A DNA stretch of 64,000 nucleotides, taken from assembly GCA_000002435.2 (NCBI GenBank), contig CM018793.1. One strand, written 5' to 3'. Of the stretch, positions 4,771 through 64,000 are shown piece by piece (positions within the stretch are counted from its first letter, which is position 1; the number at the start of each line of letters is the position of its first letter). The notes under the pieces were generated by a model. That model saw only the letters and a list, made by a program, of their open reading frames with translations. It had not been told where the DNA came from and did no database searches. Source of the DNA: Giardia intestinalis. Lineage: Eukaryota. The position numbers were made by a program, and so were the translations under genes.

Positions 4771-4795
4771 ATAAAATACGACATGCAAATATTAA

Positions 4796-7363: not shown

Positions 7364-7957
7364 CTATGCTTGGGAAGATAGTCTTTGTTTATACTCAGTA
7401 AAGGTCATATGCTCAACGCTGGATTCGAAGCGCGTGCATGTTATCCTCTTTAGTACATCAGCCGTTACGTCTCTGACATAAGACCCTCCCTTATGGAGAA
7501 GATGCAGCAAGGTTGTAGACTGATCCCATCCTTGCTCCTCAGCAACGCACGGAAGGAAGACAGAGGAGCGTCCCTCGTAGATAATTGTTATCCCGTGCTT
7601 CCCCACCACCCAATCCAGAGGGTCGCAAGGGGTAAAGCGGACTAAAAGGGAGACATCCACAAGTAGATCACCTTTGTCAAATTCCCCTGCTGTCACAGGA
7701 GAAAATCGTGTATCCTCCAAAGCAGCCACGCATGCATACTTAGGAATTCCTTGCTGAATCTTCAACGGGGTAAGACAGCCGATGCACCCCCTGAGATCTG
7801 GGTCTCCTGTGCGCAAAGCCGTGTGCCATGTTACAAAGAGCGGACACTCAACGTCCGGTATCAGATGATTCACAGCTCTGGGGGCGCGGCCATGGACCTT
7901 GTCATCAAGGCTTTGGAAGGCTGCAAAACACATGTCCTTGGTCGCTGCTAGAGACAT
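7364..7957 (-). CDS. AMMECR1-domain protein
   Basis: Conserved AMMECR1 core 'LRGCIGCLTPL...ALEDTRFSPV'; 197 aa ORF. Confidence 0.7.
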   Translation of the reverse strand: MSLAATKDMCFAAFQSLDDKVHGRAPRAVNHLIPDVECPLFVTWHTALRTGDPDLRGCIGCLTPLKIQQGIPKYACVAALEDTRFSPVTAGEFDKGDLLVDVSLLVRFTPCDPLDWVVGKHGITIIYEGRSSVFLPCVAEEQGWDQSTTLLHLLHKGGSYVRDVTADVLKRITCTRFESSVEHMTFTEYKQRLSSQA

Positions 7958-7974
7958 ATTTACTAGTTTTTACC

Positions 7975-10284
7975 TTAGTTTGTTGGAGGGACAAAGGTTC
8001 CACGAAGCTCCACAATGCGGTTGAAAACCAAGTGCTTTGCTGTACTGCTGGTATCTACAATAAAATACCCGCTGCGTTCAAATTGGTAACGCTTAGGAGA
8101 GGTGTTATTTTTGGCCTGCTCAGCGACATATCTGGGCACACGTGCCCTTGGACACACGACCATACTATTCGGATTAACGTCGTCTATCCAATCTCCTTCA
8201 ACCTCATATGGATTTGCGGACTTAAATAACTTGTCAAAAAGGCGTACTTCTGCCACTCTGCTTCCCGTCTCCGAAACCCAGTGAATGTGCGTCAACTGTT
8301 TCTTCTCTGCCTTGAGCCTCTTGGAAGCTTCTTCCTTCTTTTCTGGACACCAAGAGTGCGTGCAATACAGGACCAACTCAGTATCCCCGCCTTTGAGAGT
8401 TCGTCTCTCAAAGTGATCAACAAGAAGCAGTGGTCCATAGCGAAGACCTACTGGTTGCCCTGGTGCTAGTCGGAAGAAGTCAGGAGTATTGTTCTCGCAA
8501 AAGTCCTCTGCATCTATGTAGAGGATGCGCTCCAATTTAATTTCCTCAGTACCCATTTCACTATTCTTCGGGTGCAAGCTGTAGGAAATGGGTACGGTAT
8601 CCAGAGGGTCAGATCCAAAGTCAAGAAGCTCCACGCGAATAGGCGAAGTAACTGCCATAGTTCGCTCAGCAATGGGATCCAGCTCCAAACGAAGAACATG
8701 TTCTAGAAGGTGGTAGTCTATTGTCTGTGCGTTACGAGAAATGCCTACCACCTGACAGAAGGTATTGATGGAGCTCGGTGTATATCCACGACGCCTAAGG
8801 CCATCCAAAGTGAGTAACCTGGGGTCATCCCACCCCATAACAATCTTCTTGTCAACGAGGGTGAGCAAGCGCCTCTTGCTCATGACATTATAGGTTATGT
8901 TGAGCCGTGAGAATTCCCATTGCATAGGCCTATAACCTACATCAAATCCATCAGACGTGCGGAAATCATGGACATTGTGCGTGACCCAGTCGTACGATTC
9001 TCGACGAATGCCGAACTCCAGAGTGCATAGTGAATGTGTAATGTGCTCAAATGCGTCGATAAGACAATGAGAGAAATCATAGGATGGATAGATACACCAG
9101 GCGCTACCGGTCAATGGATGTCTGCAGTATTTGATACGATAGGCGATGGGATCGCGCATATTTGGATTATCTGACTGCATATCTATCTTAAGGCGTAGCG
9201 TGTACTGTGATTCCTTATACAGCCCGCACTTCATTCCTTCAAAGATTCGAAGATTCTCCTGGATTGATCGTTTTCTCCCAGGTGGGTCTAGACGCTCTTC
9301 TCGATACTTAGCAACCTCTTCCACAGTTTGATCGCAGACGTAGGCTTTGCCTTGGCGTACAAGCTCCACAGCAACATCATAAAGGCGCTGGAAATAGTCG
9401 GAGGTATGTGTGAATTTGAAGGGCTTGTGACCCAGCCACTCGATACTAGCTAAGATAGAGTCAATATACTCCTTGGACTCCGCCTCTGGATTGGTATCAT
9501 CCATACGAAGATAGGTCTTTCCGTTATTAAGAAGAGCATAGTTGAAGGAAATGAACATGGCCTTTGCGTGGCCCAGATGCAAGTATCCATTCGGCTCAGG
9601 GGGAAAGCGCGTGAGAACACTGACGCCAAGGTTCTTGAGAAAGTCTTTATGCTGCCACTTATACTTGAGAAGCTGCTCGTAGCGATTCTGCTTTGGAATA
9701 GCTGACAGGACCTGTGCAATGGGAGGGACGTGGATGGATCCAGTCGGAGGGGAATCTTTAGACTGGGCGGCTTCTGATGTTTTCGTAGTGATAGCATCTT
9801 CCTCACAACTATGTGCAGTTATCCTCATTTCCTCAAGCTCAGCGAATTTCTCGGTGGCGAGGTTGAGAAGAAAGTCGTGCTCGGCCCATGGAAGGTCTCT
9901 TCCCATTAATGAAACAAGCTGGTAAGGATTCTTTATGCTGTCCGGCTTTGCCAATGCCTTGTCCAAGGCGCTGGATATCTCCTTCTCTGTGTAGGTGACC
10001 CCAATCCCGCAGGCCTTGTCGAACTCTACTTCATTGATGGTTGGAGATTGATTGCTGGCCAGGTATGCGATAGCAGCGTTGAGCTGCTTGGTAGAGAAGC
10101 CGCTCATTACCTTGGAAAGTAGAAAAGAACGGTGTGCCAAACGATCTTGGGGAACCTTTTTAACTAGTATATTGAGGCATTCAATGGTTGATGAAGAGTA
10201 CTCGGCGTTGGGGTCGATCCCCAGAGACTCGCACGTCTTGCTGAAGGCAGACTTCTTCTCATGCATAATAAAATTTAAAATCAA
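7975..10284 (-). CDS. Class I aminoacyl-tRNA synthetase, glutaminyl-tRNA synthetase type (Gln/Glu family)
   Basis: HIGH motif in 'FPPEPNGYLHLGHAKA', KMSKS-type motif 'VMSKR', N-terminal extension; 769 aa ORF. Confidence 0.8.
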   Translation of the reverse strand: MILNFIMHEKKSAFSKTCESLGIDPNAEYSSSTIECLNILVKKVPQDRLAHRSFLLSKVMSGFSTKQLNAAIAYLASNQSPTINEVEFDKACGIGVTYTEKEISSALDKALAKPDSIKNPYQLVSLMGRDLPWAEHDFLLNLATEKFAELEEMRITAHSCEEDAITTKTSEAAQSKDSPPTGSIHVPPIAQVLSAIPKQNRYEQLLKYKWQHKDFLKNLGVSVLTRFPPEPNGYLHLGHAKAMFISFNYALLNNGKTYLRMDDTNPEAESKEYIDSILASIEWLGHKPFKFTHTSDYFQRLYDVAVELVRQGKAYVCDQTVEEVAKYREERLDPPGRKRSIQENLRIFEGMKCGLYKESQYTLRLKIDMQSDNPNMRDPIAYRIKYCRHPLTGSAWCIYPSYDFSHCLIDAFEHITHSLCTLEFGIRRESYDWVTHNVHDFRTSDGFDVGYRPMQWEFSRLNITYNVMSKRRLLTLVDKKIVMGWDDPRLLTLDGLRRRGYTPSSINTFCQVVGISRNAQTIDYHLLEHVLRLELDPIAERTMAVTSPIRVELLDFGSDPLDTVPISYSLHPKNSEMGTEEIKLERILYIDAEDFCENNTPDFFRLAPGQPVGLRYGPLLLVDHFERRTLKGGDTELVLYCTHSWCPEKKEEASKRLKAEKKQLTHIHWVSETGSRVAEVRLFDKLFKSANPYEVEGDWIDDVNPNSMVVCPRARVPRYVAEQAKNNTSPKRYQFERSGYFIVDTSSTAKHLVFNRIVELRGTFVPPTN

Positions 10285-10679
10285 TTATGGTGTCTCCATG
10301 CAGCACGTTGACGGATGCACAGAACAAGAAGCTGGCGATGCTGGTCAACGTGCGTGAGCAGCGAAGAAAATCCTATCTTCTTGACCTTCTTAGTGGTATG
10401 GTGCTTGAAAACAAGCTTTACTCTTCGATAAGTAACTAGAATACAAGATGCAGTAATTATACAGCCAATAAGTAATTCACTTATATGTAACTATTCATCA
10501 CGTGGTTAACTTTTAATAGAAAAACATACCAATACTAAAATTATAAATCCTGATCATAGACCATCATGAACCAGCATATCCTGCCTTACGTAATGTATGG
10601 TTTCAGTGATCTGATTAAATGAAATATTCATATTTATTAGTTAAGCGAGTGTAAAACCTGAAGGACTTTTATAAAAGTA
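10285..10679. promoter_or_regulatory. AT-rich divergent intergenic spacer between the tRNA synthetase (minus) and cysteine protease (plus) start codons
   Basis: About 395 bp with no ORF and AT-rich composition, flanked by two outward-facing start codons; Giardia promoters are short AT-rich initiator regions (established knowledge). Confidence 0.4.
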
Positions 10680-12236
10680 GTGATGTGGTTGTCCTATTTT
10701 CTGGTGATCTTTTTGCTTGAACTCTTTGTCGGCCAGAATGAAGGTGTCGATAGTCCACATAAGGACACGGCTCTCTTTGACGAGTTTAACGCACACTTTG
10801 CTCACTTCTACAGGTCCGCTGAGGAGTATGAGACGGCGCTGGAGCACTTTCACAAGAATCTGGCTCTTCTCGGGGCTGACCACGCGCAGAACCTCAGTCA
10901 CCTCCGCGACATTCTCGAGCGCACGGAGGGGTCAGTTAAATACGGCCTCAACCCCACTCTTAACCGCGATATCAGCCAGAATGGGTACGTGCCGATTGAT
11001 CCTGCTGACATGATTGATCTAAGCACCCCCTGGCGCCGGTTCTCCTTCTCGGTCAAGCGGCTCTTGCTCAAACTTAGTCGCTCTACGTCTGGGGGCCTTG
11101 AAAATGATGATGATTACTGCAAAAAGAACTTTCGTCTTCGTGATAACCCGCTACGTACATTCTCCTCGCCTCCTCTTTCAGTGGATCTGCGAGAACTTGG
11201 TTTGATCGATCTAGCTAGAAATCAGGGTTTTTGCGGCTGTTGCTGGGCAATGGCTTCTGCTGCGCTTTACGAAATATCAGTTCGCTCAACAAGGAACTAC
11301 TTTCAGTCTGACTCTGCCGTTGATGGCGCTTTCAAGGATCCTCACTTCAAAGCTTCAGAGCAGTACATTATGAACAAGTCATATCAATCCAATAATTATT
11401 GTCAAGGTGGCAATTATGTAACAGTTTCTCGCGACTATGCTGTCCACCAGGAGCTGGATACGCTTGAGTCTCTAACTAATTTCCCTTTTGAATCCTTCCA
11501 ACTGACTACTAATCCTGACAATATAAAAAGAGATGCACAAATGAAAGTCAAGAACGCATTTGTCCCTGGTAATACGGTAACTGTGGCTAGTTGTCCAGCA
11601 GCTATTTTCCGCGTTTATGACAGTGGTGCTGCCGACAGTGATTTCAAGAGCTCCGTCAAGGTTGCAAAGTCTCTCCTTGCGCGTGGAATCCCTATTGTTA
11701 TTACTATGAGTACTGTCGCCAATGGGAAAGAAGAGACGCAGAAGGCCATGCAATCCTACAAGTCAGGTATCCTTGACGTTCCTTGCACCAACAACGTTAT
11801 AGACCACCAGGTGATAATAGTGGGCTATGGAAGAAAGAATGGGGTTGACGTTTGGGTTGTTCGCAACTCCTGGGGTGAACGCTGGGGCAGCAAAGGGCAC
11901 TTCTATGCTCCAATTGGGAAGAACTCACTGTGCACCGAACAGCAAATGTACACAGAAATACCAAGATATTTTCCTCTGAATAAAAAGGCTGCAGATCAGT
12001 TGTATGCTAATAGAGCGTCTTCGCTTAAAGACAATGTCTGGGACAATATTCTTCAACGAGGGAATGAGAACTCTTTAGATGTCGACCCAGTCCGCAACTC
12101 TATATCTTCGAAGAGTGGATCTATTATAATAGCACTTGTGTTCATTCCAATTGTCGTTGCAATTGTCGCTTTGACTTCATATATCTTGTGCAACAACAAA
12201 AAGAAGAAGCACTCCCAGAGGGGTGTTAATATCTGA
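10680..12236 (+). CDS. Papain-family (C1) cathepsin-like cysteine protease with N-terminal signal peptide and predicted C-terminal transmembrane anchor
   Basis: Catalytic Cys context 'NQGFCGCCWAMASAAL', catalytic His 'VIDHQVIIVGYG', 'NSWGERWGSKGHFY'; signal peptide 'MMWLSYFLVIFLLELFVG'; C-terminal hydrophobic 'IIIALVFIPIVVAIVALTSYIL' plus basic tail 'KKKKHSQRGVNI'. Confidence 0.8.
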   Translation: MMWLSYFLVIFLLELFVGQNEGVDSPHKDTALFDEFNAHFAHFYRSAEEYETALEHFHKNLALLGADHAQNLSHLRDILERTEGSVKYGLNPTLNRDISQNGYVPIDPADMIDLSTPWRRFSFSVKRLLLKLSRSTSGGLENDDDYCKKNFRLRDNPLRTFSSPPLSVDLRELGLIDLARNQGFCGCCWAMASAALYEISVRSTRNYFQSDSAVDGAFKDPHFKASEQYIMNKSYQSNNYCQGGNYVTVSRDYAVHQELDTLESLTNFPFESFQLTTNPDNIKRDAQMKVKNAFVPGNTVTVASCPAAIFRVYDSGAADSDFKSSVKVAKSLLARGIPIVITMSTVANGKEETQKAMQSYKSGILDVPCTNNVIDHQVIIVGYGRKNGVDVWVVRNSWGERWGSKGHFYAPIGKNSLCTEQQMYTEIPRYFPLNKKAADQLYANRASSLKDNVWDNILQRGNENSLDVDPVRNSISSKSGSIIIALVFIPIVVAIVALTSYILCNNKKKKHSQRGVNI

Positions 12237-49618: not shown

Positions 49619-50800
49619 CTAATTTACACCGTCCAAATCCGGCTCGGCAATGATGCCCTCGATGACCGTCAGCAGCGAGTCGGCTAGATAGCAGCGGTCT
49701 CCCAGCGACTCCACAGTGCTCAAGTGGAGCTCCCGCAGAAGGGGATAGGCTCCCAGGTCCTGCAGGCTTTTCTTTCCGTGATCGGTGTGGCAATACAGGA
49801 GCAAGCAATCGCTAAGGTTGGCACACGTCTCTTCGCTGGGAAACCTAAGCGACGAAAGGCTAGCCATGTGCGCCTGAATCCTCTCTGGCAGGGCAGCATG
49901 CTCTTCTGGAGTCAGCCCGGCTCCACGTGGCTCCGCTTTGGTCTCAAGGCTTCTCTCGCAAACAAGAGCTAGCAAGATATGTTCTACCAACGGCTCAAGC
50001 ATCTCGGCGGTCTGAGCCCGGTTCTCGGCCTGATCGGACCCAGTAGCGGACTGGTCAGCGGGTCGGAGCATCAAAAACATGTTGTGGAGGAGCTGGCTGT
50101 ACTGAAAGGATATCCCTGGATAATCAGCGGCTGTATCAACAATGTGGGCTCCAACAAGGTTCGCCGCGAGAGAGTCGACAAAGAGGTGCGCGACAGATGG
50201 AGCGTCCCCTGTGGCTGTGGCAATGTTGATCAGCAGGTAGAGCGATCGCTGAATGAGCGGAGCAGTGCCAACCGTTGCTTTAGTGAACGATATGTTAAAC
50301 ATGAGCCCTGCAGCATTTGGCAAGCTAGGAGACGTCAGCAGGGTCCTAGTTATCTCCAGACATCGAGTAAAATTTATCAGAATGGCAGCAAACACCGTGT
50401 GAATCCTATTCTCCGGTGTTAGACGCAGGAGGGCCATTAGAAGGTACTCTAAAAGAGGAGATAAAGACGGAGAGGCGGCGAGGGCGTCTAGAAACTCCTG
50501 GGCTCTGCTTGCAGCCAAAAAGACTTGCTGCGAGAGGAGAACCTCCGTGAGCTCCTCCTCCCGCTCTGGCGTGGACCTGGCCTTTGCAGACAGGGCATCG
50601 ATGACAGCAGGGGACGACAGGGCGGAGATTACGTCGGGGTCATCCGAGGCCCGTACCAGCGTCGTGAGCGTCTCTGCAGTTAACGACGGCGGCGTCCTTT
50701 TCAGCGCAGAAAGACAGGGATCCATGTTCAGGGAAATGTCCTCAGTTGCCGGGGGCTGGCTCTTTGCCCACAACAGTGGGGGATTTTTTGCTACCCCCAA
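49619..50800 (-). CDS. Hypothetical Leu-rich helical-repeat protein (possibly HGH1/DUF383-384-like)
   Basis: 393 aa; C-terminal 'LLLYCHTDHGKKSLQDLGAYPLLRELH' resembles the conserved HGH1 C-terminal motif as I recall it (weak). Confidence 0.3.
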   Translation of the reverse strand: MGVAKNPPLLWAKSQPPATEDISLNMDPCLSALKRTPPSLTAETLTTLVRASDDPDVISALSSPAVIDALSAKARSTPEREEELTEVLLSQQVFLAASRAQEFLDALAASPSLSPLLEYLLMALLRLTPENRIHTVFAAILINFTRCLEITRTLLTSPSLPNAAGLMFNISFTKATVGTAPLIQRSLYLLINIATATGDAPSVAHLFVDSLAANLVGAHIVDTAADYPGISFQYSQLLHNMFLMLRPADQSATGSDQAENRAQTAEMLEPLVEHILLALVCERSLETKAEPRGAGLTPEEHAALPERIQAHMASLSSLRFPSEETCANLSDCLLLYCHTDHGKKSLQDLGAYPLLRELHLSTVESLGDRCYLADSLLTVIEGIIAEPDLDGVN

Positions 50801-51444
50801 CCTGGGGTGTAAAGCAGCCGGACTTCACCGTGCACAGAATAGAGCCTATCTTGGCTGGGACTACTTCCGAGTCCACACCGGTGGCTTTCTGCCGTACAAC
50901 ACACCACATCATTGGAACAAGAAGGCGTTGTGACTGAGGGGCTCTGGGCTGCTTATCCAATGAAGGGGCGGCTTCCAAGCTCACTGGCGGGATATACCTA
51001 CGCTAGTGCACATTGTAGGCTACGCCAATGGAGCAGAGCTACGGCTCCGTCTGAACGGCCGCACATCCCGCTGTGCACCCCTGGATTAGCACTCGTGGCT
51101 ACACGTACTGAACAGAACATCCCCGCCAGCTCGCCTGTTCTGCTGATACTGTCAGGATCACCGATCCCTCCAACGTCCCAGTAAGCCGGCCATCCGATAC
51201 CGGCCAGGAAGCACAGATACATAGGACATCGGAGGATGCTCGAAATCTCCTGCTCTGGAATGGCTGTCGTCCTCCCCCTCTGGGTCTCTATTATAGTTGT
51301 ACTAGTAGTCCACTGGCGTCCAACTCAATAATCACACACTCATCAAGCTAGTAACATCCAGAACAAGCCCTCTATAGATTCCTGCTAGTGTAACTGCCAC
51401 GTGGTTGGAAGCGCACTACTAGAGGCTGGCCATTTACTATAGGG

Positions 51445-54042
51445 CTACTTTGTAAGGATGGCCACTATCTCCTCATAGCCTTTCTTCCTGGCCATGTCGA
51501 GGGGTGTCTCTGTACATGCACAAGTTAAATGGGGTTCTGTATTGTACTGGGTTCTTCTAACATCTCCTTCCTTCTCTGCAAGAAGTCTTACACACTCTAT
51601 GTTGTTATTATCTATTGCCCATATAAGAGCAGTCCAGCCGTACTTATCATGCATCCCCGCCTCCCTGCCCAGAAGTAGCTTGACACATTCTGGATGATTA
51701 TTACGTACTGCACCCATGAGAGCAGTTCTACCCTTATTGTCCTGCATGCCCCCCTCCTCACTCAAGAGTAATCTAATACATTCTAGATGACCGTTATATG
51801 CAGCAAGGATGAGAGCAGTCTGACCGTCACTGTCTTTCATTCCACTTTCGTGAGCTACTAGCTGTCTCACCGCTTCTGTGTATCCATATATTGCCGCTCT
51901 CATAAGTGCTGTTCCTTCGTATATTTCCCATTTATCTATTTTGACATATTCTGCTTTTCGTCCTTTTTGAAGAGATATAAGTGTTTTCAGCACCTCTACA
52001 TCGTTTGTATCTGCCGCCCGCATAAGAGCCGTAGTACCTCTGCCATCTGTTGGGCTGAGAATCTCTACGACGTCCTCGTAGCCCGCTTGTGCAGCAAGCG
52101 TCAGAGCTGTATCGCCATCATCATTCTTCTTTTCCTTGTCAGAGAGCTGATTCCTGACTGTTTCAATGTCTCCAATGAAGGAAGCACACATGAGTTGGGT
52201 CCAGGATGAAGCCTCGTATTCACGAAGAATCATAGCAGTGTCTGTACGGTCATTATTGAGAGCATGCACGAACGCTGTGTTCCCACTGCTATCCTTTATT
52301 CCTTTCTGGATTGGTATAAGCAGTTTTACCATCTCAGTATCTCCTCTGGCTGCTGCCCTCATGAGTGCCGTGATATCATCTTTATCTGTAGGATCGTCGT
52401 GCTCTACGAGGATCTCAACGAGTTCTGGATGTCCATTCTTAAGAGCGTAGTATAAGGCGTTGTGATTCTGCTTATCCTTTATTCCCTTTTCGTGACCAAG
52501 AAGGATTTTTACCATTTCAAGATTCCCCTTTTGTGCGGCAACCATTAAGGCAGTTTTGCCTTCATTGTCAGCCAGACCCTTTTCATGTGAGGCCAGAAGG
52601 GATGCAACTTCTGCATGGCCTTTCTCTGCGGCGATCATCAAAGCAGTTTGATTATTCTTGTTTGTCTCTCTACACTCGTGAAGAATGAGAATCCTGGTTA
52701 CCTCAGGATGGTTGTTGTATGAGGCGTGCATGAGCGCAGTCCAGCCGTTCTTGTCCTGGAGGCCGTTTTCCTCCCCAACAAGCAACTCGACGGGATCAAC
52801 GTGCCCCTGCTGGGCCGCGTGCATGAGGGCCGTCATCCCCTGTGCGTCACGCTGACCAACGCCGAGTCTTTCTTCAAGCAGCATCCAGACGGTCTCCGTG
52901 CTATTCGTATGCGCGGCACGCATCAGCCTTGGCAGCAAAAAGAGGCTGGACTGAGGGTCAGTCGTGTTCATCCTGTCACTGAACTGTGCAAGCCTATTCT
53001 CCAGTGCCTTAATCATAGCTAGATGTTCCTTACTTTGGTCTTCAAGTGCGTCGATCTTAGTAGATTTAATCTTAACATCCTCTTCCAGCAGCGCGATCCT
53101 GGCGTTAGCGCCATTCAGCGCAGCCTCCAAGGATCCGCACTTATACTTCAGCATCACGCACTGACCTCCCAACTCACCAACTGGGATGTCGAATGTAGCG
53201 AGCGTCTCGTGCAGCTCCCTGGCCGTCGGCCTCCTCTCTGGCTCCAATACGAATATCCGCTCCAGAACACTCTTTATGAAGCCATCAGTGACACCGCTCA
53301 GGTCCGGCCTCCACCCATCGATGAAGACCTCTGCCGGCTCCTTGCCCCCCAAGAAGTCCGGTCTCCTCAGAGTTACTAATTCATAAATGATGACCCCGAG
53401 GCTCCATACGTCGGAGGCAGGGCTGGCCTCGTTGTGGAGGAGCACCTCGGGGGCAACGTATGCCATTATTCCTATGAGAGTGCTCCCACTCCACAGGGCG
53501 TCCCTGCAGAGGCCGAAGTCGGCGATGACGAAGCGCTCTCCGTCTGCGTTGATAAATATATTGGCAGGCCTGAGGTCGCGGTGGACGAGGCCTCTAGTGT
53601 TTGCTCCATTGACGCTGTGGAGGTAGGCGAGGGCGGCGGTGAGCTGTTTCATGACAGAGAGAATCACGCCGGCAGACACGGGGATCTTCCTTCGCTTGTG
53701 CTCAGTGAGGAGGCGCTCAAGGGTCTTGTCGTGCCGGTCCGTGACGACGTAGAAGAAGCTTTCGTCTTCGACAACTTGATGGTACTTGATGACTCCCGGG
53801 TGAAAGAGGGTAAAAAGAGCGGCCAGCTCAAGCTTGATAGTATCCACGCTGCTCCTATCCAAGCCTTCAAGCAAGATCTCCTTCACGGCGAGACTCGGAT
53901 AACCTTCGAGGGAGTAGACTACACCTGTGGCATCTCTTCCTAGCACGCCATTCAGCCGCTCGTGGAGCTCCTTAAAGGTGAACGGTGGGATGGTGGGAGT
54001 CACTGCAGAAAGACTGAATGCGTTATTGCCATTGTCGGCCAT
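51445..54042 (-). CDS. NEK-type protein kinase with a coiled-coil linker and a long C-terminal ankyrin-repeat array
   Basis: Kinase catalytic loop 'LVHRDLRPANIF', 'IADFGL', 'YVAPEVL'; degenerate Gly-loop 'LGRDATGVVY'; about 14 ankyrin repeats ('TALMHAAQQGHVDPVELLV', 'TALMIAAEKGHAEVASLL', 'TALMRAAARGDTEMVKLL' ...). Confidence 0.75.
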   Translation of the reverse strand: MADNGNNAFSLSAVTPTIPPFTFKELHERLNGVLGRDATGVVYSLEGYPSLAVKEILLEGLDRSSVDTIKLELAALFTLFHPGVIKYHQVVEDESFFYVVTDRHDKTLERLLTEHKRRKIPVSAGVILSVMKQLTAALAYLHSVNGANTRGLVHRDLRPANIFINADGERFVIADFGLCRDALWSGSTLIGIMAYVAPEVLLHNEASPASDVWSLGVIIYELVTLRRPDFLGGKEPAEVFIDGWRPDLSGVTDGFIKSVLERIFVLEPERRPTARELHETLATFDIPVGELGGQCVMLKYKCGSLEAALNGANARIALLEEDVKIKSTKIDALEDQSKEHLAMIKALENRLAQFSDRMNTTDPQSSLFLLPRLMRAAHTNSTETVWMLLEERLGVGQRDAQGMTALMHAAQQGHVDPVELLVGEENGLQDKNGWTALMHASYNNHPEVTRILILHECRETNKNNQTALMIAAEKGHAEVASLLASHEKGLADNEGKTALMVAAQKGNLEMVKILLGHEKGIKDKQNHNALYYALKNGHPELVEILVEHDDPTDKDDITALMRAAARGDTEMVKLLIPIQKGIKDSSGNTAFVHALNNDRTDTAMILREYEASSWTQLMCASFIGDIETVRNQLSDKEKKNDDGDTALTLAAQAGYEDVVEILSPTDGRGTTALMRAADTNDVEVLKTLISLQKGRKAEYVKIDKWEIYEGTALMRAAIYGYTEAVRQLVAHESGMKDSDGQTALILAAYNGHLECIRLLLSEEGGMQDNKGRTALMGAVRNNHPECVKLLLGREAGMHDKYGWTALIWAIDNNNIECVRLLAEKEGDVRRTQYNTEPHLTCACTETPLDMARKKGYEEIVAILTK

Positions 54043-54545
54043 GACAGTTTATTTTCAAAAATAAGACCAAGCGATTGGATTGAACGAGTGATTGGGCCGC
54101 ACCCTCAGAGGCTACAAGAGAGCACAGGCATCTGCCAGCCTCACTTCTCGAATCTGTGTTCACGACAGCAGACACGTCGTCCCATACACTGTGGAGCGCC
54201 CTTGCATGCGCTGGCATGGCGTCCCTGTCTGTCCTGGCCCGTTCGCGACTATCACGCATTACTAGTACTCTGCGCCAGCTCTCTCGACTGTGTAGTCATG
54301 GCAATTCCACGTGTGCACAGGCCATCTAGCAGCACTCGCCCGCGTCCTCTGCTCCTCCGCCACTCATCCACGCGGGCCATGCAGGGTCTAGTGGCCCTTC
54401 CAGCGCTGGCCACGTTGGTGCTCTCTTCTGATGCTGCATGCCCTACAGGATCACCCGTGCTCACCATATTCCTAGAACCCATCACGCACCAGGGGGCTCC
54501 CTCGCAATTGGTGCCCAGAAAGTCGCGAGCAGGATTCATCGGCGC

Positions 54546-54562
54546 GTTTACTACCTAAGTCA
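54546..54562 (-). promoter_or_regulatory. Conserved VSP extended polyadenylation signal (ACTTAGGTAGTAAAC, matching the ACTYAGRTAGTRAAY consensus) overlapping the TGA stop
   Basis: Minus-strand sequence '...GGG AAG GCA TGA CTTAGGTAGTAAAC' read directly from the window. Confidence 0.7.
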
Positions 54563-56836
54563 TGCCTTCCCTCTGCATATGAACCACCAGCAGAGGAAGC
54601 CCACAAGGCCAGCCACGACGACCACCACGGCGACGGAGATACCTGCTATGGCCCCCGTGGAGAGCCCGCTACTCTTGTTGGCGCCAGAGGACACACACTT
54701 GTCACCCTCCAGACTGTAGTCGTCCCCGCACTGACCGCACTTGTTCTCCTCGCTGCACCTGACGCACCCGTCGATACTGCAGGGGATGCACTTCGTTCCG
54801 TCTGTGTTCGGTCTCTGGTCTTTACTGGTACAGGCCTCGCACTTGCCGCCTGCTCCACAGTGCGAGCATCCGTCAATGGTACATGTGAAGCACCCGCTCC
54901 CAGCCAGGTTGGGTTTATTATTGCCGCTACACGCTGTGCACGTGGCAGGGGCCATGCCAGGAGCCTCTAGCGCTGCTGGGGCCGTGCATGCTGTGCAGCC
55001 ATATACCCCCACATATGCCTTAGCGGTGCTGCCAGCCCCTATCACTGTGCCAAGGGGGTTCTCGCAGGCCAGGACAGACTGATCAGTATTGGATGCCCCC
55101 GGGACCAGGAAGTACCGGCTGTTCTCGCTGGGGGCGGTGCACCTCCCTCCCTCGGCAGTCTTGCACATGTGGCTGCCAGGAGCCTTCTGAGTACTGTAGC
55201 AGCCGCCCATGTACAGGAAGTACCCGGCAGCACACTGGGTGCAGACGCCATTGGCACAGGTGTTGTCACCCTTAGTTCCTGTGCAGACGCCATCGATGGG
55301 GAACGTGGCGGGGTCTCCGCACAGCGAGCAGTACTGGGAGAACGCCCCGGCGCTGTCAACGACGACCGCCCCGCAGGCCCCAGACGTCCCCCCGCAGGCC
55401 GTGGGGTCCTCGCAGGCCTTTGTGCACTTCACCGGATTGGTTCCCTCCTTGCGATAGTTGGGCTTACAGGAGTTGCAGGTCAACGAGCCAGCGAAGGTGC
55501 ACGTTGCACACCCATCGACTCCATCTGTCGGGTTATCACAGGGGACGCATGTGCCGGGGGAAGTGCCCCCTCTCAAGAAGAACCCGGTCTTGCAGGTTTG
55601 GCATTTGGTCTTGTCAGCTTTCTCAGAGCAGGTTGCGCAGTTCTCGCCACAGGCGTCACATGTGAAGCCGCTGTTGGTGTTCTTGATGTACCCCTCCAGG
55701 CACTCTGTGCAGGTCGGCGGTGTGGCGCCAGTCCTCGAGCACTTCTTACAGCCGACGATGCCCTGGTTCTTCTTCTCTTGCTCTGTCACTGTGTCGCTGC
55801 ATAGAATACACGCTGTTGCGTCGTCTTTCATGAATAGCCCACTATCGGTGGCTTTGCAGCCGTCGTCTGTCTTTTCCACGCACGTCGTCGTCCCGTCGGC
55901 AGCAGTTCTTACCAGCTTCCCGTTACAATCGGTGCACCTCGGCTTTCCCGTGGCGTCACTATATTCGCATGCCGCGCACCCAGCTATGTCAGTAGCGCAG
56001 GCCTTGCACTCGTCTGCTTTTGGGTCTGCATAGCTATCACTACCACATCCACCAGCCTCTACACACTCAGTGCCCTTCAGGAACTTCCCCCCAAGGCAGG
56101 CGGTGCACTGGGTCGGCGTAGCAGACTCACACGTCAAACAGCCGGGTCCGCATTGCACACATGCACCATCCTTCGTAGCGTACCCTCCTTGGCATGCAGT
56201 GCACGTGGCAGCCCCTGTACCGCCACCTGGCGCCGTGCATGTGTAGCAGCCCGCCACCCCCGTGACTCCGTCTCGCGGAGTGACGTCTGAGCAAAGCACG
56301 CACTCGTTGCCAGGGGCTACTGGGCTGGCCGGGTTCTGGAATAGATACACAGCGTCTGCCTTGCAGGTGGTGCACACCCCCTTGTCGGCCGCCGTGCAGA
56401 TCTCAGACCACTGGCTCGTCTTGTAGCACCCGCCCATGAAGAGGAAGTACCCGTCCCCGCACTTTCCGCAGGCAGTATCCGAGCCCGCCAACGCGGTCCC
56501 GTCTGCCCTGGTGCACCCGGCCGCCGCGGCCTGGGGGGAGCCGGGGGGCCAGCAGAAGCCGCCGACCGGGACGCCCCCGGCCCTGCACTCGGTGCAGATC
56601 TCGGAGTACCCGACCGTCTCGCACTTGTCGGTCTGGCAGCTCGCGGCATGGTCTCCGTCTGGCTGATAGGCCGCCGCGAGTGTGACTGCAAGCGTGGTTC
56701 CTACACACAGCAGTGGGTATCGCCTCAGAGGGCCCGCCTCCGCCACCTGCTGTGTACCGAATGTTGTGCTTGCAATGGGGAGTGCATGTTGAGATGTGGT
56801 CGATAGGCGCCCTGCAGACCCTGTGGTGGGCGGCAC
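54560..56836 (-). CDS. Variant-specific surface protein (VSP) with canonical TM-CRGKA C-terminus; atypical 5' end (no ATG adjacent to the signal peptide)
   Basis: C-terminus 'ISVAVVVVVAGLVGFLCWWFICRGKA*'; many CXXC and 'GGCY' motifs; stop codon embedded in the VSP extended poly(A) signal. Confidence 0.85.
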   Translation of the reverse strand: MPPTTGSAGRLSTTSQHALPIASTTFGTQQVAEAGPLRRYPLLCVGTTLAVTLAAAYQPDGDHAASCQTDKCETVGYSEICTECRAGGVPVGGFCWPPGSPQAAAAGCTRADGTALAGSDTACGKCGDGYFLFMGGCYKTSQWSEICTAADKGVCTTCKADAVYLFQNPASPVAPGNECVLCSDVTPRDGVTGVAGCYTCTAPGGGTGAATCTACQGGYATKDGACVQCGPGCLTCESATPTQCTACLGGKFLKGTECVEAGGCGSDSYADPKADECKACATDIAGCAACEYSDATGKPRCTDCNGKLVRTAADGTTTCVEKTDDGCKATDSGLFMKDDATACILCSDTVTEQEKKNQGIVGCKKCSRTGATPPTCTECLEGYIKNTNSGFTCDACGENCATCSEKADKTKCQTCKTGFFLRGGTSPGTCVPCDNPTDGVDGCATCTFAGSLTCNSCKPNYRKEGTNPVKCTKACEDPTACGGTSGACGAVVVDSAGAFSQYCSLCGDPATFPIDGVCTGTKGDNTCANGVCTQCAAGYFLYMGGCYSTQKAPGSHMCKTAEGGRCTAPSENSRYFLVPGASNTDQSVLACENPLGTVIGAGSTAKAYVGVYGCTACTAPAALEAPGMAPATCTACSGNNKPNLAGSGCFTCTIDGCSHCGAGGKCEACTSKDQRPNTDGTKCIPCSIDGCVRCSEENKCGQCGDDYSLEGDKCVSSGANKSSGLSTGAIAGISVAVVVVVAGLVGFLCWWFICRGKA
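56241..56654 (-). repeat. Inverted repeat copy A (VSP 5' coding region), identical to 63587-64000
   Basis: Reverse complement of 63601-63750 matches 56501-56650 base-for-base; the two ends also match; identity breaks exactly at 56654/63587. Confidence 0.85.
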
Positions 56837-57192
56837 TCGGCCTTCCTAGAAGCTATGCTCCCAGTAGATGGCTACAGTGAGCAAGCCCTGACTCGTCTGG
56901 CTTCAGTTCCGTACGTAGTTTATTGCTCAGTCGATTGTGAACAGCCCTTGAGGCCCGGTGCCCTAATCCGGTATTGGGGATCTGACTATGTAACACGCCA
57001 CTGAAGTAGAGTGGGTGTTTCCAAAAGCGCGTGACTTGATGCAACTCTCCAGTGCATCGGTTCGCCCTACCACGGGGGATAGCCGGGGCTGGCCTGGACA
57101 GGGCTTTTCTCTCGTACCGATCAGTTCACAGGTTTCCTTCTTATGTTTACAACATACTAATAAATAAGCCAAGCCAGTCCTAGGCACACCGC

Positions 57193-60100
57193 ATGCTGAT
57201 TCTCCTGTGTGCTGCTGCATGTCTCGCCGAGGCGTGCGGGACAGGACCTGCATGTGTTAACGGAGACTGCGCCTACGGGGACGGAGCACACTTCTGCCAG
57301 TGCAGGCGGGGCTGGGCGGGGGCTGCGTGCGATGCTCCCCGTGCAGGGTTCTGCAGGGTAACTACTAATACTGGCAAGGCGTCTACAGACAGGGCCGTCA
57401 ACTACGCCTGCCTCGTGAACGGGACGGAGTGCACAGGGTCGAGCAAGTGCACCTACTACGCGGGGGCGTACTCGTGCGACCCCTGTCCCGATGGCTTCGT
57501 GTCCTACGAGGGCGAGTGCCTGCCGAGGGGCTGCTTCAACACCGACGACTTCTCAAACCAGGAGGCAACGAAGGCCCCCTGCAACGGCCGCGGCCGCTGC
57601 CTCCTGAAGGACCCCGGGCTGGCCGGGCTGAGTGCTGACGACTACGCGTGCGACTGCTACCCGATCTACCGCGGGGGCCTCTGCCAGTCGTGCGACGACG
57701 CCAACGCGATCGCTACAGAAAGCTCTTCGTCTGACGCCCTCCCTACGTGCAATGCGCGGGCCTGCCAGGACTCGGATGGCATCGTGTGCTCAGGCCAGGG
57801 AACGTGCACCCTCGACGTGGGCCTCGATCGCGAATCGTACCGCTACCGCTGCAAGTGCAATGATGGCTACACACGCGTTGGGCACAGGTGCGTCAGGACG
57901 GAGTGCGTGGCCACGATTGACGGGTCCCCGGTCGTCTGCGGGGGCTTCGGGAAGTGCACAGATGAAGGAAACAACGGGGTGTTCAGATGTGTTTGCGATT
58001 CGGATGCAGTCCAGGTCGATAAGTTTTGCACATATTCCGCGTGCACAGACGAGTCCCGCTCAAAGATCTGTGGCGGAGTGGGCGCGTGTGTGCGCAATGG
58101 CGCTGGCTATAGTTGCGATTGCCGAGGGCTTGCCACGGGCGACCTCTGCGATACTTGCACTGACAAGTCTGCTAAGATAAATGGCACCTGTGTTCCAGTG
58201 GGGTGCCTCACTTCAAACAACCAGGAATCATGCAAGAACGGAGGAACATGTGTCAAGTCCAACGGCGAGTACCACTGCCGCTGCCCGGACATGCTCTTGC
58301 CGTCGACGGAGAGTGCACGTCCCCCGCGTGCATGGACGAGGAACTGGGGAAGGTCTGCTCGGGGCACGGCACGTGCAAGACGGACGATCTACGAAATATA
58401 CAATGCACTTGTGATCAGGACTATACCTACATCGCTCCGGGGCGTTGCATCTTGAGCACTTTGGTAGATAGCCCTGCCACGGTTTGCAGTGACCATGGAC
58501 GCATTGTCGTTAGTGCTGAGGCTCCTGATACGATGACGTGCCAGTGTTCGCCTATCCACACAGGAGCTAAGTGCGCAGAATGTGATCAACAGAACGCGCA
58601 AATGATTGGCGAGAAATGTATTGCAAAGAAGTGCATTGTGCAGCAACAGCCACCGGATCCACAGCCCAGTCTGCGCACGGCTACTGCTCAGGATATCTGC
58701 GGGAACACAGGCACGTACACCACTTATGGTGATCCGAGCAATCCGTTCATCACATGCGTCCCTAAAGATGCTGATAGTGGAAATGTCTCCGCCTACAACG
58801 GCACCTTCTCTGCTAAACCTGGATGTGTATTTATCAGTAAGATAGACAAGACAAGAAGATTCTTTTGTGGATTCCTTGAGAATATAACAGAAAACCTGTC
58901 AACTGGTAACTTGCCTACGTGCGCTAAACCTTCCGAAAAACCCGATCTGCCTGAAACATGTACTCACTGTCCAACTGACTTTCACCTTGTACACTTTGGG
59001 GAAAACAATAGCACATGTATGCACAAGAGTTGTCACGATGGCAAATCCAGTCATATGTGGTACAATTACTGCGGCGGCGTGGGAGACTGTATTCAGAAGA
59101 AGGATAAAAGCGGATACGAGTGTGATTGTGGGACTGCTGCTAAATGGGATCCAAATTTGAAGGCGTGTGTTACTGATGCATGCAAGCTCAACAAGAGTCT
59201 TGCTGGCCCCTATGCACCAGACTACTGTATTCCTCAGTCTACCTTTACACTCGAATGCACTGTCGGACGGGACGCAACGTGGCAGTGTAATTGCACTGGG
59301 GACTATGTTACGTACAACAAGACGTGCATTTCAAAGAGTAAGAACGCTGATCCAAAGACTCAGCGAGCAAGGGGACTCTGTGGCGGCCCCGGGGCGGGAT
59401 ATATAGACAGTACTGGAACCTGCGTCTGCAGCAATGGCTTCCTCAAGATCGGTGACATGTGCTACAGCTACGACTGCCTGCCAGTTGGCATATCAGATAA
59501 CATAAGGAATCCGGATATCAACGTGCTTGTCTGCTCCGGAAAGGGGGTCTGCGCATACAACCAGCTGACTGGCCGGTACGGCTGCGAGTGCAGCGACGGA
59601 CTGGAGGCCTTCGGGGGCTACTGCACTCATCCAGGATGCGCCGGAAAGGTAATGCATAACGGAGAAATTAAGTATGTTGAGTGCAAAATCTACGATGGAA
59701 CAACTGGAGATTGTACAAACGATAAGGGCACATATTCCTGCAAGTGTACTACTCCGTATAGATCTGTCAATGGGATCTGTGTTCATCAGCGTTGCGTATC
59801 GTATGATAACGTCTATTGCGGAGGAGATGTCCTGGCTGCATGCGTGCAGGGGAGTAATTACTATTACGGGTGTGTCTGCTCCGAAGGCTATGAGAGGGGC
59901 CAGCTCAATTCGGAATGCATTCCAAGTAAGTGTGTTTACAGAAGGCTGCTGAGTGATCCCACTATTGCATGCAATGGGTTAGGAACATGTGGCGGAGAAG
60001 GATCTTTGTTGAAGAATAGGCGGTGTGAGTGCAAGTCTGGTGCTAAGCTAGTCACACTTAGAGATGTGAATGGGGAGTTGAGAGAAACATGTATATTAAG

Positions 60101-62249
60101 TGAGTGCATTTCTAGTGAGGACGGAGTGGAACCGCCGATTATCTGTGGAGGACTAGGCAGTTGTGGGTCCACAGGATGCGTATGCGATCTGGGGACAAAG
60201 TTATTTAAAAAGGCTTGCTTTGGCATCAACTGCTTTATTAACACCGTAGATGATAGCGGACAACTTGTTGAGTCTGTGTGCGGTGGCGAGACCGTTGGGG
60301 TGTGCACAAAGATAGCGTCGCACGGCGATCGTCGAGACTACGCTTGTAAGTGCAAGGACCCGAAGCCTGACGAGTATGAAGAACTTGATGGGTTCTGTCT
60401 ACCAAAAGCTTGCATATTTGAAATCACAACCTTGACTAATCAGCAGGTGAGGACGATGTGCGGTGGAAAGCAGTTTGGAACATGCGTTCTTAATGCTACT
60501 CAATCATCCAAGTCATACTGTAAGTGCATAAATCGATATGACATTATTCAAATAACAAATGGAAAGTGTATGAAGAAAACCTGTCTTAGCGACTCTCTTT
60601 CTGGAGGTCCGGAGGGATACGTTGAATGTTCTGGACATGGGAAGTGTATAGGGGATCATATTGTGGGGTACTCGTGCAATTGTGACGAAAATTATCAAAC
60701 GGTTGCAGACGATCGCCGTTATTTGTGCGTACCAGCTGTCTGTGTTGTATCAGAGACAAATTCCAGTACTATATGCAACGGAAGAGGGACCTGTCAGTTC
60801 AAGACAGACCCAGGAAAGTGCGAGTGTAGGCCTGGGTATGATGGTACCAAATGTGAGACGTGTGCAAATGGCTACAAGGAACACACAGATGCACAGTGCT
60901 ACCTCAATGGCTGTCCGGCAGACAATTGTGGCACGGAGGAAAATACTAGCGTAGGGGCTTGCCAATTTAGCGGAAACAGTTTTGCTTGCGTCTGCGTCAA
61001 CTCGAGCTTCGTCGTTGACAGTGCTAGCAAGAAGTGCCGAAAATCCAGATGCGTTTGGTCGGATCCATACGATCAGACAGAAAAAACGTGCTATGGCATG
61101 GGTACGTGCAATGATAACGGCGAGGACACTGGGGCGTGTGTTTGCAACCCCGGGACAACCCTAGTCGGGACAAACATCTGTGTTTATAGCCAGTGCATCT
61201 CGGATGGAAGCGACCCCAAAGCAATATGCAAGGGGCGCGGGACATGCGTAGAGGGCCCTGTCGCCGGGACAGGACTGTGCAGATGCGACAGCAGCAGATA
61301 CCGCACAGACAAGAAGACCGGCCAGTGCTTTGTCAAGGAGTGCTTCGGGGCACACGAGAGCATCCTGGCCGAGGTCTGCGATGGCGGTGGAACATGCAGT
61401 GAAGACACTAAAAAGTGCAACTGTAGCGTAGACGGCTTCCAGAGCCTCGACGGCCAGAACGGCTGCGTGCACAGCAGCTGCGTCTCGTCGAACAACAAGC
61501 TTTGTAGCGGCTTTGGGGCCTGCGAGAAGACCGGTGACACCTACGGCTGCCTGTGCGCAAGTTACTATACTCTGGTCGACAAAGACTGCATCCCCACAAG
61601 GTGTCTCAAGGACGGGAAAGTCTGCAACGGCGGCGGCACGTGCTCCGGCGAGGGATCCTCTGCGACCTGTAGCTGCAACCAGGGCTGGGCTTCGCTGAAT
61701 AACCTCTGCTACCCGGCAGCCTGCGTTTCCAGTGGGACGCTCTGCGGGGGGAATGGCAACTGTCCACTTTCCACAGATAGTACATGCGAGTGCAAGTATG
61801 GGTATGAAAGTGTTCTTGACCAGCTCTGTATCAGCAGCCAGTGCGTCCAGCGCGGCACCGACGGCACCGTGACGATCTGCGGGGGCAACGGCAGGTGCGT
61901 GTCTGAGAACGGCGTGACTCCCAGCTGCGTGTGCAACGAGGGCTTCTCTCTCACAAGCGACTTCGTCTGCGGAGTCCCTGCTCCATCCAACAAGTCATCA
62001 AGTACCATAACGATTGCAGTCGTGGTCGTCGTCCTCCTCGTCCTCGTTGCAGTGGCCGGCTTCCTCGTCTGGTGGTTCGTGATACGGCCCAGGAAGAGCG
62101 GTGAGTTGAGGGAGCGCGCCCCGCGGAAAGGCCCTAGCTTTAGTGGCTCGCAAAAGCTCAAGAAGCAAGCAAGCTCCAAGGCGTCGCTCCACGCCACTGC
62201 GCCCCTACTGAGCCGGTCATCTCATGCCGGTTCTAGTGTCCAGCTCTAG
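57193..62249 (+). CDS. Large EGF-like high-cysteine membrane protein (HCMP), interrupted by a single frameshift near 58291-58305 (ORFs 57193-58455 and 58203-62249)
   Basis: Signal peptide 'MLILLCAAACLAEACG'; EGF-like Cys spacing continues seamlessly across frames ('YHCRCPDML|AVDGECTSPACMDEE'); C-terminal TM 'ITIAVVVVVLLVLVAVAGFLVWWFVI' with basic cytoplasmic tail. Confidence 0.65.
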
Positions 62250-63534
62250 TTCGCCGCCATCCATGCAAGATATTACAGCATGCACGAGTTGGCCCTCCAA
62301 AACTGTAAATCTGGGTATAAGACTCACTCAGCTCGAGTAGAGGAATCATCTACTGAGAGTAATTGTCCCTCGCCTGAAGCGTGTCCAGACGTCTCACGGG
62401 CAGCAAGCCTGGCCCTCTGAGGGTGGGGTGGTTGTAGGTAGCAAGCAGGGACTCTCCTCCACTGGTGCAAAGGGACGACCAGGGGCCCCGTGCGGTCGTC
62501 GGTGCCCGTGCCTCCGTGTCTCGTGCAGCGCAAGCTGGAGATCAGACCAGCCCGGCGACCAGTGCAGAGCCCGACAAGTGCAAGGCGGTGGGCGTGGGTG
62601 TCATCCAGCAATCAGAGGGATACCACAGCGAGAGGACAGGGGCACATACGGACACCACCCACCCGGTCCCCATCAGGAGCCCCCTATCAGTCCTCTTCTA
62701 CCCACTAGCTGGACCGGGACCCAGGGACTGCAACTGTAGGAGCGCTGCCCGGGACACAGCCGGACGGACACCGAGGGGCCCAGCCAACGGGGAGCCCCGA
62801 TGGCAGCAGTTGTGATAAATGGGAGCATCTAAAAGGACAGCGGCCAGAGCCTCACCCACCGTGAAGCGAGGGACCTCTAGCAAACCACACGAGCCTGTGA
62901 GAAGGCCAGGGCTTTAGACGCACACTCTCAGATAGCGCACGTCCCCGCGGAGCAACCGAGGAAGGCAAAAGACTCTGGATACAATACTAGAGAGAAGCCC
63001 CTGTTTGCTGTCTACAACCAACTCTCGCCCTCAGACTGGCCAGGAATTGAACGAGAAGTTATTCGTGAGACTCCTAGATCACGCTCAGATGGGGGCTTAG
63101 CAGCACAGTATAAACGGATATCAGTGTCTAGGGGAGCAGCCTGTTTGGCGTTGGCCGACTTAGTCTTGAGCAGAGCCATCCTCTCTAAGACGACCTGTAT
63201 AAAGAGTGAGAGCAATAGCAAAGCATCAGGATAGTGATCGCCAGTTGGGTGCGGTAGAACACGTGATAGTTACGGGTGTCACATACAAGAAGGCTGTGGG
63301 CACTATGGTAGAGGACAGCACTCAATACTCCAGAGCTGGATGCCACTGCGCCCTAAGTACTGGTAGAGATGCGATCTGACAGTCAGCACTCTCCACTGGG
63401 CACGTATTGGACAGCCTTTTGAGATGGAAGTTGATGATAATCGAGATTGACTGGTAACTCTAAAAACAGAGCTTGTTCACCAGAAGAGTGCGCTGCCACC
63501 AGCAGAGCTTTATCACCATCTGTGTCGCACTATA

Positions 63535-64000
63535 ATGTTGCTGATTGCATTGCACCTTGCGACAAGCATACTCGCGGCGCCTTGCCAGCCAGACGGAGAC
63601 CATGCCGCGAGCTGCCAGACCGACAAGTGCGAGACGGTCGGGTACTCCGAGATCTGCACCGAGTGCAGGGCCGGGGGCGTCCCGGTCGGCGGCTTCTGCT
63701 GGCCCCCCGGCTCCCCCCAGGCCGCGGCGGCCGGGTGCACCAGGGCAGACGGGACCGCGTTGGCGGGCTCGGATACTGCCTGCGGAAAGTGCGGGGACGG
63801 GTACTTCCTCTTCATGGGCGGGTGCTACAAGACGAGCCAGTGGTCTGAGATCTGCACGGCGGCCGACAAGGGGGTGTGCACCACCTGCAAGGCAGACGCT
63901 GTGTATCTATTCCAGAACCCGGCCAGCCCAGTAGCCCCTGGCAACGAGTGCGTGCTTTGCTCAGACGTCACTCCGCGAGACGGAGTCACGGGGGTGGCGG
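63535..64000 (+). CDS. VSP gene, 5' portion (runs off the window end); canonical start and signal peptide 'MLLIALHLATSILAAPCQPDGDHAASCQ...'
   Basis: Frame traced by hand from ATG at 63535. The mature N-terminal ~140 aa are identical to the minus-strand VSP at 56241-56654. Confidence 0.7.
   Translation, partial: MLLIALHLATSILAAPCQPDGDHAASCQTDKCETVGYSEICTECRAGGVPVGGFCWPPGSPQAAAAGCTRADGTALAGSDTACGKCGDGYFLFMGGCYKTSQWSEICTAADKGVCTTCKADAVYLFQNPASPVAPGNECVLCSDVTPRDGVTGVA
63587..64000 (+). repeat. Inverted repeat copy B (VSP 5' coding region); extends at least to the window end
   Basis: See copy A; identical translated ORFs 56403-56708(-) and 63447-63848(+) in the ORF track independently confirm it. 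Confidence 0.85.

Follow-up and report, generated by a model that had tools for sequence, protein, structure and literature searches.

This study concerns a pair of genes for variant-specific surface proteins (VSPs) in Giardia intestinalis WB (assemblage A1), located on contig CM018793.1 of the long-read reference assembly (GCA_000002435.2), within a stretch of 64,000 nucleotides (nt) that constitutes the window of our analysis. The two genes are arranged head to head in the arms of a large inverted repeat, with a gene for an EGF-like HCMP between them and genes for NEK kinases on the outer sides. The plus-strand gene is an intact VSP, whereas the minus-strand gene has the same body but no start codon, and this lesion is a point mutation from ATG to CTG in its own original leader. 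The order of the accessions on the contig is KAE8305955 (NEK), the minus-strand VSP (without a protein record), KAE8305956 (GL50803_00113268), KAE8305957 (HCMP), KAE8305958 (the plus-strand VSP) and KAE8305959 (a NEK identical to KAE8305955); the accessions on either side of the minus-strand VSP, those of the NEK and of the next gene, are consecutive. The coordinates of the principal features are collected in Table 1.

Table 1. Features of the inverted VSP pair and its surroundings, in positions of the window
Feature	Position	Strand	Remarks
Left arm of the inverted repeat	50534..56684	.	VSP body, NEK kinase gene and about 0.9 kb more; outer end (about 50534) inferred
Polyadenylation signal AGTAAAC	54552-54546	-	7 nt past the TGA stop
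Full-length VSP pseudogene (psiVSP)	54560..56713	-	Former start (now CTG) to CRGKA tail and TGA; 717 codons, 31 CXXC, 12% Cys
Inner junction zone of the inverted repeat	56665..56684	.	Inside signal-peptide codons; from comparison of the arms
Degenerate initiator and start	56709..56715	-	CActgCT instead of the VSP initiator CAatgTT; former ATG is CTG, 56713-56711
Native 5' intergenic region, common to the divergent HCMP-EGF gene	56714..57192	.	Contains TAG 56848-56846, GTG 56836 and out-of-frame ATG 56787
HCMP EGF-like spacer gene	57193..62249	+	Frameshift near 58284, giving GL50803_00113268 (420 residues) and KAE8305957.1 (1238 residues)
Intact partner VSP (P0120), start	63264..64000	+	About 270 nt of its own 5' flank; initiator TAatgTT 63533-63539; ATG 63535; right arm from 63567

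The minus-strand open reading frame (ORF), including its 5' extension, spans 54560-56836, and its product ends in FICRGKA. This product matches the Pfam VSP family PF03302 (E=1.3e-38, 133 bits against a cut-off of 31.4), and its nearest database relatives are Giardia VSPs. The features by which a VSP is recognized are present in its body: a Cys-rich ectodomain with CXXC motifs and the PF03302 match, and a C-terminus (...GISVAVVVVVAGLVGFLCWWFICRGKA, followed by the stop) in which a transmembrane domain leads into the CRGKA tail. Beyond the stop lies an intact poly(A) motif, as the preliminary description of this DNA had recorded, which is a further feature of VSP genes; the Giardia consensus for this signal is AGTPuAAPy.

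The start of the gene is of a different kind. VSP genes have an ATG inside an initiator (Inr) element, PyAatgTT, with the signal peptide directly after it, and this is not found in the minus copy. On the 5' side of the junction the minus strand reads ...GPLRRYPLLCVGTTLAVTLAAAYQ in translation, and the hydrophobic stretch has no ATG in its vicinity, as had been noted earlier. Reading the frame through from the TAG at 56848-56846, which closes it upstream, to 56437 revealed no in-frame ATG; the first one is that at 56437 (FLF-M-GGCYK), 76 codons past the Gln codon at the junction. Position 56836, previously taken for the only in-frame ATG, is in fact a GTG on the minus strand (the plus strand reads 'cac' at 56834-56836), and neither of the ATGs at 56787 and 56649 shares the frame of the VSP. 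The 16 residues after the former start have a mean Kyte-Doolittle value of 1.84, as against 1.96 in the plus copy, whereas the stretch after the Met at 56437 is non-hydrophobic (mean -0.08).

Two other sources of a start were considered and rejected. An intron supplying an upstream start would have to use the ACACAG at 56757-56752, which by inspection lacks the CTRAC branch motif that belongs to the splice motifs of Giardia, and the spliced N-terminus would still be long and non-hydrophobic. A start at FRAMESHIFTED fails as well: the frame opened by the ATG at 56787 closes after about 20 codons, and neither this ATG nor that at 56649 is in register with the VSP.

The plus copy begins ATG-LLIALHLATSILAAPCQ, with the leader MLLIALHLATSILAAPC and the initiator TAatgTT, and so has the proper VSP leader that had been ascribed to it. 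A cluster look-up identifies it with KAE8305958.1 / XP_001705332.2 (718 residues); no protein record exists for the other member of the pair. Its flank (63264-63534), leader and body are colinear with a VSP gene of isolate P15 of assemblage E (P0003; 5774-6474 of locus L006 against 63264-63999 of the window). The minus copy matches this P15 locus only from the junction inwards (6033 against 56684), and the other neighbours of P0003 are not present in the window.

A search for repeats within the window delineated a head-to-head inverted repeat of 56251-56684 against 63567-64000, 434 nt long and 99% identical, with a spacer of 6882 nt; the right arm reaches the end of the window, which truncates the repeat. 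Comparing the arms base by base in register, we found 415 of 415 positions identical from 56665, in the CAG (Gln) codon before PDGDH, down to 56251. On the 5' side of 56665 there follows a 9-nt patch with 4 mismatches (56674-56666), and 10 nt identical in both arms, ACTCGCGGCG, occupy 56681-56672; farther 5', the arms match at 3-8 of 20 positions, which is the level of chance. The boundary of the repeat thus lies inside the signal-peptide codons, as first proposed. The accompanying proposal that identity stops exactly at the codon before QPDGDH holds for the perfect identity from 56665 but not for the breakpoint, which is a zone of 20 nt and not a single codon. At the protein level the two WB products are identical at all 701 residues from Gln codon 18 of the plus-copy product to the CRGKA C-terminus, whereas the 16-17 codons before them are different and a start is present in one copy only. 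A search of the rest of the window for other copies of either 5' region yielded nothing beyond chance.

The repeat extends well beyond the VSP bodies. The NEK of 865 residues (51445-54042, minus strand) corresponds to two WB accessions of identical sequence, KAE8305955.1 and KAE8305959.1, one on either side of the VSP-HCMP-VSP unit; the presence of a NEK accession on each side implies that the inverted duplication is multi-genic, with at least 5.2 kb per arm. A contig of isolate DH (assemblage A2; L004), 6154 bp in length, corresponds to 56681..50534 of the window at 96.6% identity and starts exactly at the base equivalent to 56681. It is probably a collapsed repeat contig, which would put the arms at about 6.15 kb.

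The origin of the minus-copy leader became apparent from comparison with P15. A second P15 locus (L005) contains, in order, an HCMP-EGF gene on the opposite strand, an intergenic region of 498 bp, a VSP gene (P0006) and a NEK-type kinase gene. Its positions 4316-10842 are colinear with 62366-55875 of the window (75.8% identity over 6629 nt), in an alignment that crosses the HCMP gene, the entire intergenic region and the leader and takes in about 840 nt of the VSP body; the intergenic region itself (56714-57192) is homologous to its P15 counterpart, with indels. The P15 protein begins MLCVGVTLAVAL, which resembles ...LLCVGTTLAVTL... of the minus copy, and the two leaders are identical at 34 of 42 nt. 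The ATG of P0006 aligns with the CTG at 56713-56711 of WB (P15 CCCAATGTTGTGTGTAGGA against WB CCCACTGCTGTGTGTAGGA). In codons, P15 reads CCCA ATG TTG TGT GTA GGA and WB reads CCCA CTG CTG TGT GTA GGA; aligned at the initiator, the two sequences are CCCAATGTTG and CCCACTGCTG. The start of P0006, CCCAatgTTG, thus contains a perfect VSP initiator, CAatgTT. A colinear P15 locus with a VSP start in register indicates that the minus-copy leader and its 446-bp 5' flank are native and were not replaced, contrary to what had been suggested from the WB sequence by itself, and the P15 ATG and initiator, set against the CTG of WB, indicate that the start was lost through an A-to-C point mutation, accompanied by a T-to-C change in the initiator. 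No inverted partner was found within 10 kb on either side of the P15 locus, and in this comparison the palindrome is seen only in assemblage A.

The same lesion recurs within assemblage A. On DNA, the CTG CTG leader is present at two paralogous DH loci, L001 / ESU36544 (93% identical to the window) and L002 / ESU37500 (87%), and on an ENA metagenome contig (L003) that covers 57388..53459 of the window at 95.4%. At each of these loci the ATG-less leader is accompanied by the same 446-bp flank and an adjacent HCMP gene, and 56714-57192 aligns with them almost base for base. An in-frame ATG is missing from all three DNA loci. The initial 'M' or 'V' of the gene models at L002 and L003 corresponds to a GTG (56746 in the window), which in DH L001 is GCG, and there is no indel in the leader frame across the four aligned assemblage-A DNA copies. 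A second protein search, made with the leader region, recovered one new metagenome fragment (P0139), which has the same Met-less leader at the protein level, and found no assemblage B ortholog. The shared CTG leader at the DH loci and in the metagenome implies that the lesion is older than both the A1/A2 split and the duplication of the module. Since it is shared by independent assemblies, it is neither an assembly artefact nor a recent recombination intermediate; the suggestion that the gene might be such an intermediate gives way to an old and fixed state, seen at two DH loci, in one metagenome contig and in one metagenome protein.

In the DH and ENA sequences the canonical leader is matched without a difference over the 19 nt that precede the Gln codon; the junction there lies 16 nt further 5' than in WB, which places the ancestral junction at about 56681/56682. 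The 9-nt patch with 4 mismatches at 56666-56674 is found in the WB minus copy alone (GCC TAT against CCT TGC, or AAAYQ against AAPCQ), and turns a conserved Cys at the end of the leader into Tyr; the canonical bases are present in DH L001, L002 and L004, in ENA L003 and in the WB plus copy. The patch could be a different end-point of conversion or a small templated patch.

Several related gene models in these genomes start at odd positions. The DH model at L001 (P0001, ESU36544) starts in the wrong frame, with VCRNHACSRTRG..., and the run of six C at window positions 56538-56533 is one C shorter there than in WB, which is likely a homopolymer sequencing error and not biology. At a paralogous WB locus outside the window (KAE8305807-809) there is a VSP with a canonical leader (P0002), whose old model XP_001707628.1 (P0126) began at the internal MGGCYK. 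The nearest DH relative of P0002 is P0125, which has the ATG-less leader adjoining an HCMP gene (DH L002).

The arms are more alike within WB than WB is to DH. Between the two WB arms there are 0 differences in 415 nt and in 1566 residues (701+865), whereas over the same arm WB and DH (L004) differ by 3.4%; had the arms drifted separately since the split, about 14 differences would be expected in the 415 nt. The second DH arm is deduced from the break of the contig: as L004 ends exactly at the junction, DH too should have two different 5' continuations. In the ENA contig the alternative leader is followed by a body of the L004 type (identity of P0124 to P0119, 99.3%). From these relationships the duplication appears to predate the A1/A2 split, and gene conversion between the arms, with tracts ending in the conserved leader/CQPDGDH region, would be the simplest account of their identity.

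Both aspects of the pair have precedents in WB. The initiator PyAatgTT is reported to be required for vsp promoter activity (Adam 2010, PMC2996952). Of 136 complete WB VSPs, 135 carry it (bioRxiv 10.1101/2022.03.07.483299). Identical inverted pairs and ATG-less vsp pseudogenes were both described by Adam 2010; the inverted pairs in WB number 14 in that study, including the vsp1267 pair, and 19 in Xu 2020 (PMC7000408), where the absence of a proper signal peptide or start codon led to 208 psiVSPs being set apart. The minus copy belongs to this already known class of pseudoVSPs, and the pair combines the two published features. It has no ATG before its leader, a non-hydrophobic first Met region and no protein record, the assignment being made from these properties and independently of the record's own label. 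In an exact-sequence look-up of the protein collection, the versions of the minus ORF starting at 56437 and at 56746 (GTG) were both absent, and the table of 19 duplicated VSP pairs in Xu 2020 (Table 2) does not contain a 718-residue, 6.9-kb pair.

Like the identical inverted VSP pairs of WB, the present pair shows inverted orientation, identical ORF bodies, an abrupt end of identity and disrupted short-read assemblies. It differs from them in several respects: 1) In the published pairs identity extends 139-729 nt past the ORFs, whereas here the copies diverge inside the ORF, about 30-50 nt past the start. 2) Both genes of a published pair are complete and identical ORFs, whereas only one copy here has a start codon. 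3) The spacers of the published pairs range from 2.2 to 3.8 kb in Adam 2010, and most of those in Xu 2020 from 2.5 to 3.9 kb, in contrast to 6.9 kb with an HCMP gene here, so that neither the external identity nor the spacer of about 2-4 kb typical of those pairs is seen. 4) Each arm also holds a NEK kinase gene, unlike those of the published pairs. With the pseudoVSPs of Xu 2020 and of the preprint (bioRxiv 10.1101/2022.03.07.483299), which also mentions 'partially duplicated' VSPs, the minus copy shares the CRGKA tail, the lack of a proper start or signal peptide and the lack of a protein record. The pVSPs described so far are for the most part fragments, copies with frameshifts or downstream array members, whereas the minus copy is full length and uninterrupted; unlike typical pVSPs it matches an intact gene exactly from codon 18 onwards, with a recognizable leader and a lesion pinned to single-base changes. 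In the pVSP arrays of Giardia muris (PMC7641422, as cited in that preprint), start-less copies are likewise tied to intact VSPs by gene conversion; those arrays are long and telomeric, are thought to donate fragments and are proposed as a conversion reservoir. The minus copy has one palindrome partner and, unlike these donors, most likely acts as a recipient or co-evolves. The palindromes of the human Y chromosome also have arms kept near-identical within a genome by gene conversion, while orthologous arms diverge between lineages; this is an analogy only, drawn from another organism and scale, and there is no sign here that conversion preserves function.

Taken together, we consider it highly probable that the minus-strand gene is a psiVSP in one arm of a large head-to-head inverted duplication, which lost its start in its native leader and whose arms are homogenized by conversion. 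The two copies have leaders and promoter regions from two different VSP lineages, and one body in common. The minus copy, the ortholog of P15 P0006 in these parts, has kept the leader and 5' flank native to the locus, and in the assemblage A lineage its CAatgTT mutated to CActgCT, leaving neither an AUG nor an initiator. The plus copy has the leader and about 270 nt of flank of the other lineage, like P15 P0003, with TAatgTT intact. Arm-to-arm gene conversion, with its tract ending in the conserved leader/CQPDGDH region, would then have kept the dead minus copy open and identical to its partner. The minus copy is presumably not translated into a VSP, consistent with the earlier view that it has lost its canonical start and may be silent.

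An alternative is that the 5' end of the minus copy was swapped for unrelated sequence at a recombination or duplication breakpoint, possibly in a recent intermediate. Such an exchange would explain why identity of the arms stops inside the leader and why the copies are unrelated farther 5' (3-8 of 20 matches), but the leader and intergenic region past the breakpoint are native to the locus: they run colinear with P15 L005, and the start codon is in register. Moreover, the arrangement is common to WB, two DH loci and two metagenome sequences, and hence is not recent, and it is the plus copy, not the minus copy, that sits in a context unlike that of its P15 relative; we regard a swap as unlikely. 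An artefact, either a mis-join in a collapsed repeat or a wrongly called base in the start codon, might be suspected on the grounds that assemblies are known to break at identical inverted VSP pairs (PMC2996952), that the DH contigs break at the junction and that the DH model P0001 carries a likely homopolymer frameshift. Against this, the junction and the CTG recur in independent assemblies (DH L001 and L002, and ENA L003 over 57388..53459), the metagenome protein P0139 has the same Met-less leader, and the WB reference is a PacBio long-read assembly, making an error exceedingly improbable.

The body of the minus copy invites the idea that it works through a near-cognate start (CUG at 56713 or 56710, or GUG at 56746) and has a normal signal peptide. 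Its leader is about as hydrophobic as those of real VSPs (1.84 against 1.96), its ORF is intact, as are the transmembrane domain, the CRGKA tail and the poly(A) signal, and the leader frame is free of indels in four assemblage-A DNA copies, with P0139 showing the same leader. However, conversion from the partner explains the integrity of the ORF, the GTG at 56746 is GCG in DH L001, and Giardia mRNAs, which have near-leaderless 5' ends, use their first AUG. A literature search judged by titles returned no report of non-AUG initiation in Giardia. The initiator reported as needed for VSP promoter activity is changed at two positions, against its presence in 135 of 136 complete WB VSPs, and we hold a functional near-cognate start to be very unlikely. 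Another conceivable role is that the start-less arm is not inert: antisense or hairpin RNA, arising from its transcription or from read-through of the palindrome, might feed RNA interference (RNAi) or microRNA (miRNA) silencing of VSPs, as a dedicated cis-linked silencer, or else the arm might be a protected template from which the live gene is repaired or diversified anew through conversion. The setting is an untranslatable inverted copy 6.9 kb from an expressible VSP, beside an HCMP promoter region. An RNAi/miRNA pathway has been proposed as the VSP silencer in Giardia, and Giardia promoters reportedly fire bidirectionally, a finding ascribed to Teodorovic et al. 2007. Even so, we think such a role quite unlikely.

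Certain points weigh against the account of a decayed psiVSP in a homogenized duplication. The silence of the minus copy follows only from the missing AUG and initiator, and the choice of ATG as the ancestral state follows from functional logic, namely the perfect initiator before a signal peptide in P15, in a comparison of assemblages A and E. In sliding-window comparisons, residues 18-77 of the shared body are 58% identical to P0003 and 60% to P0006; the body thus fits neither P15 lineage clearly better, and conversion or duplication may have run in either direction. The outer boundary at about 50534 is taken from the length of one DH contig (L004), and the identity of the arms past the visible 434 nt of the right arm is taken from protein records. 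A recent duplication would also yield identical arms, if the break of the DH contig had another cause.

The HCMP gene in the spacer is itself disrupted. In tblastn searches with intact HCMP paralogs (1685 and 1687 residues), the match to residues 1-392 lies in frame 1 and that to residues 365-1687 lies in frame 3; the N-terminal part is 84-87% identical to the paralogs and the C-terminal part 95-99%, so that the frameshift looks as if it coincided with a mosaic or conversion junction. The 'hypothetical protein' GL50803_00113268 is accordingly the N-terminal piece of a frameshifted HCMP gene, and the P15 ortholog is likewise split (274 and 1321 residues). Between the HCMP stop and the region of P0003-flank homology lies about 1 kb (62250-63263, plus strand) with no match in P15 L005, L006 or the rest of the window. 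Retrotransposon remnants have been described between VSP pairs that point apart (Xu 2020, PMC7000408; bioRxiv 10.1101/2022.03.07.483299). Among the Giardia duodenalis records that match a VSP query are P0067, P0078, P0081 and P0140, named 'NAD synthase', 'Dynein light chain', 'Queuine tRNA-ribosyltransferase' and 'DnaJ-type Zn finger domain protein'; since PF03302 is present in the first three, their names look like annotation transfer errors.

These observations have consequences for the reading of data from such loci. Short reads from the gene body, whether from RNA-seq or small RNA, are not assignable to one copy, as only the 16-17 leader codons and the flanks tell the copies apart; the leader peptides that would separate them are (M/L)LCVGTTLAVTLAAAYQPDGDH and MLLIALHLATSILAAPCQPDGDH. 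The gene models that begin at internal Mets (old WB) or at GTG (DH, metagenome) are artefacts. The end of the repeat and conversion tract in the leader/CQPDGDH region shows a possible end-point of VSP recombination tracts. While the current understanding of antigenic variation is unchanged by this locus, it is a worked example of decay and reshaping in the Giardia antigen repertoire, in which a start was lost by two base changes and yet a 2.1-kb body stays letter-perfect as the arm of a palindrome beside a live gene.

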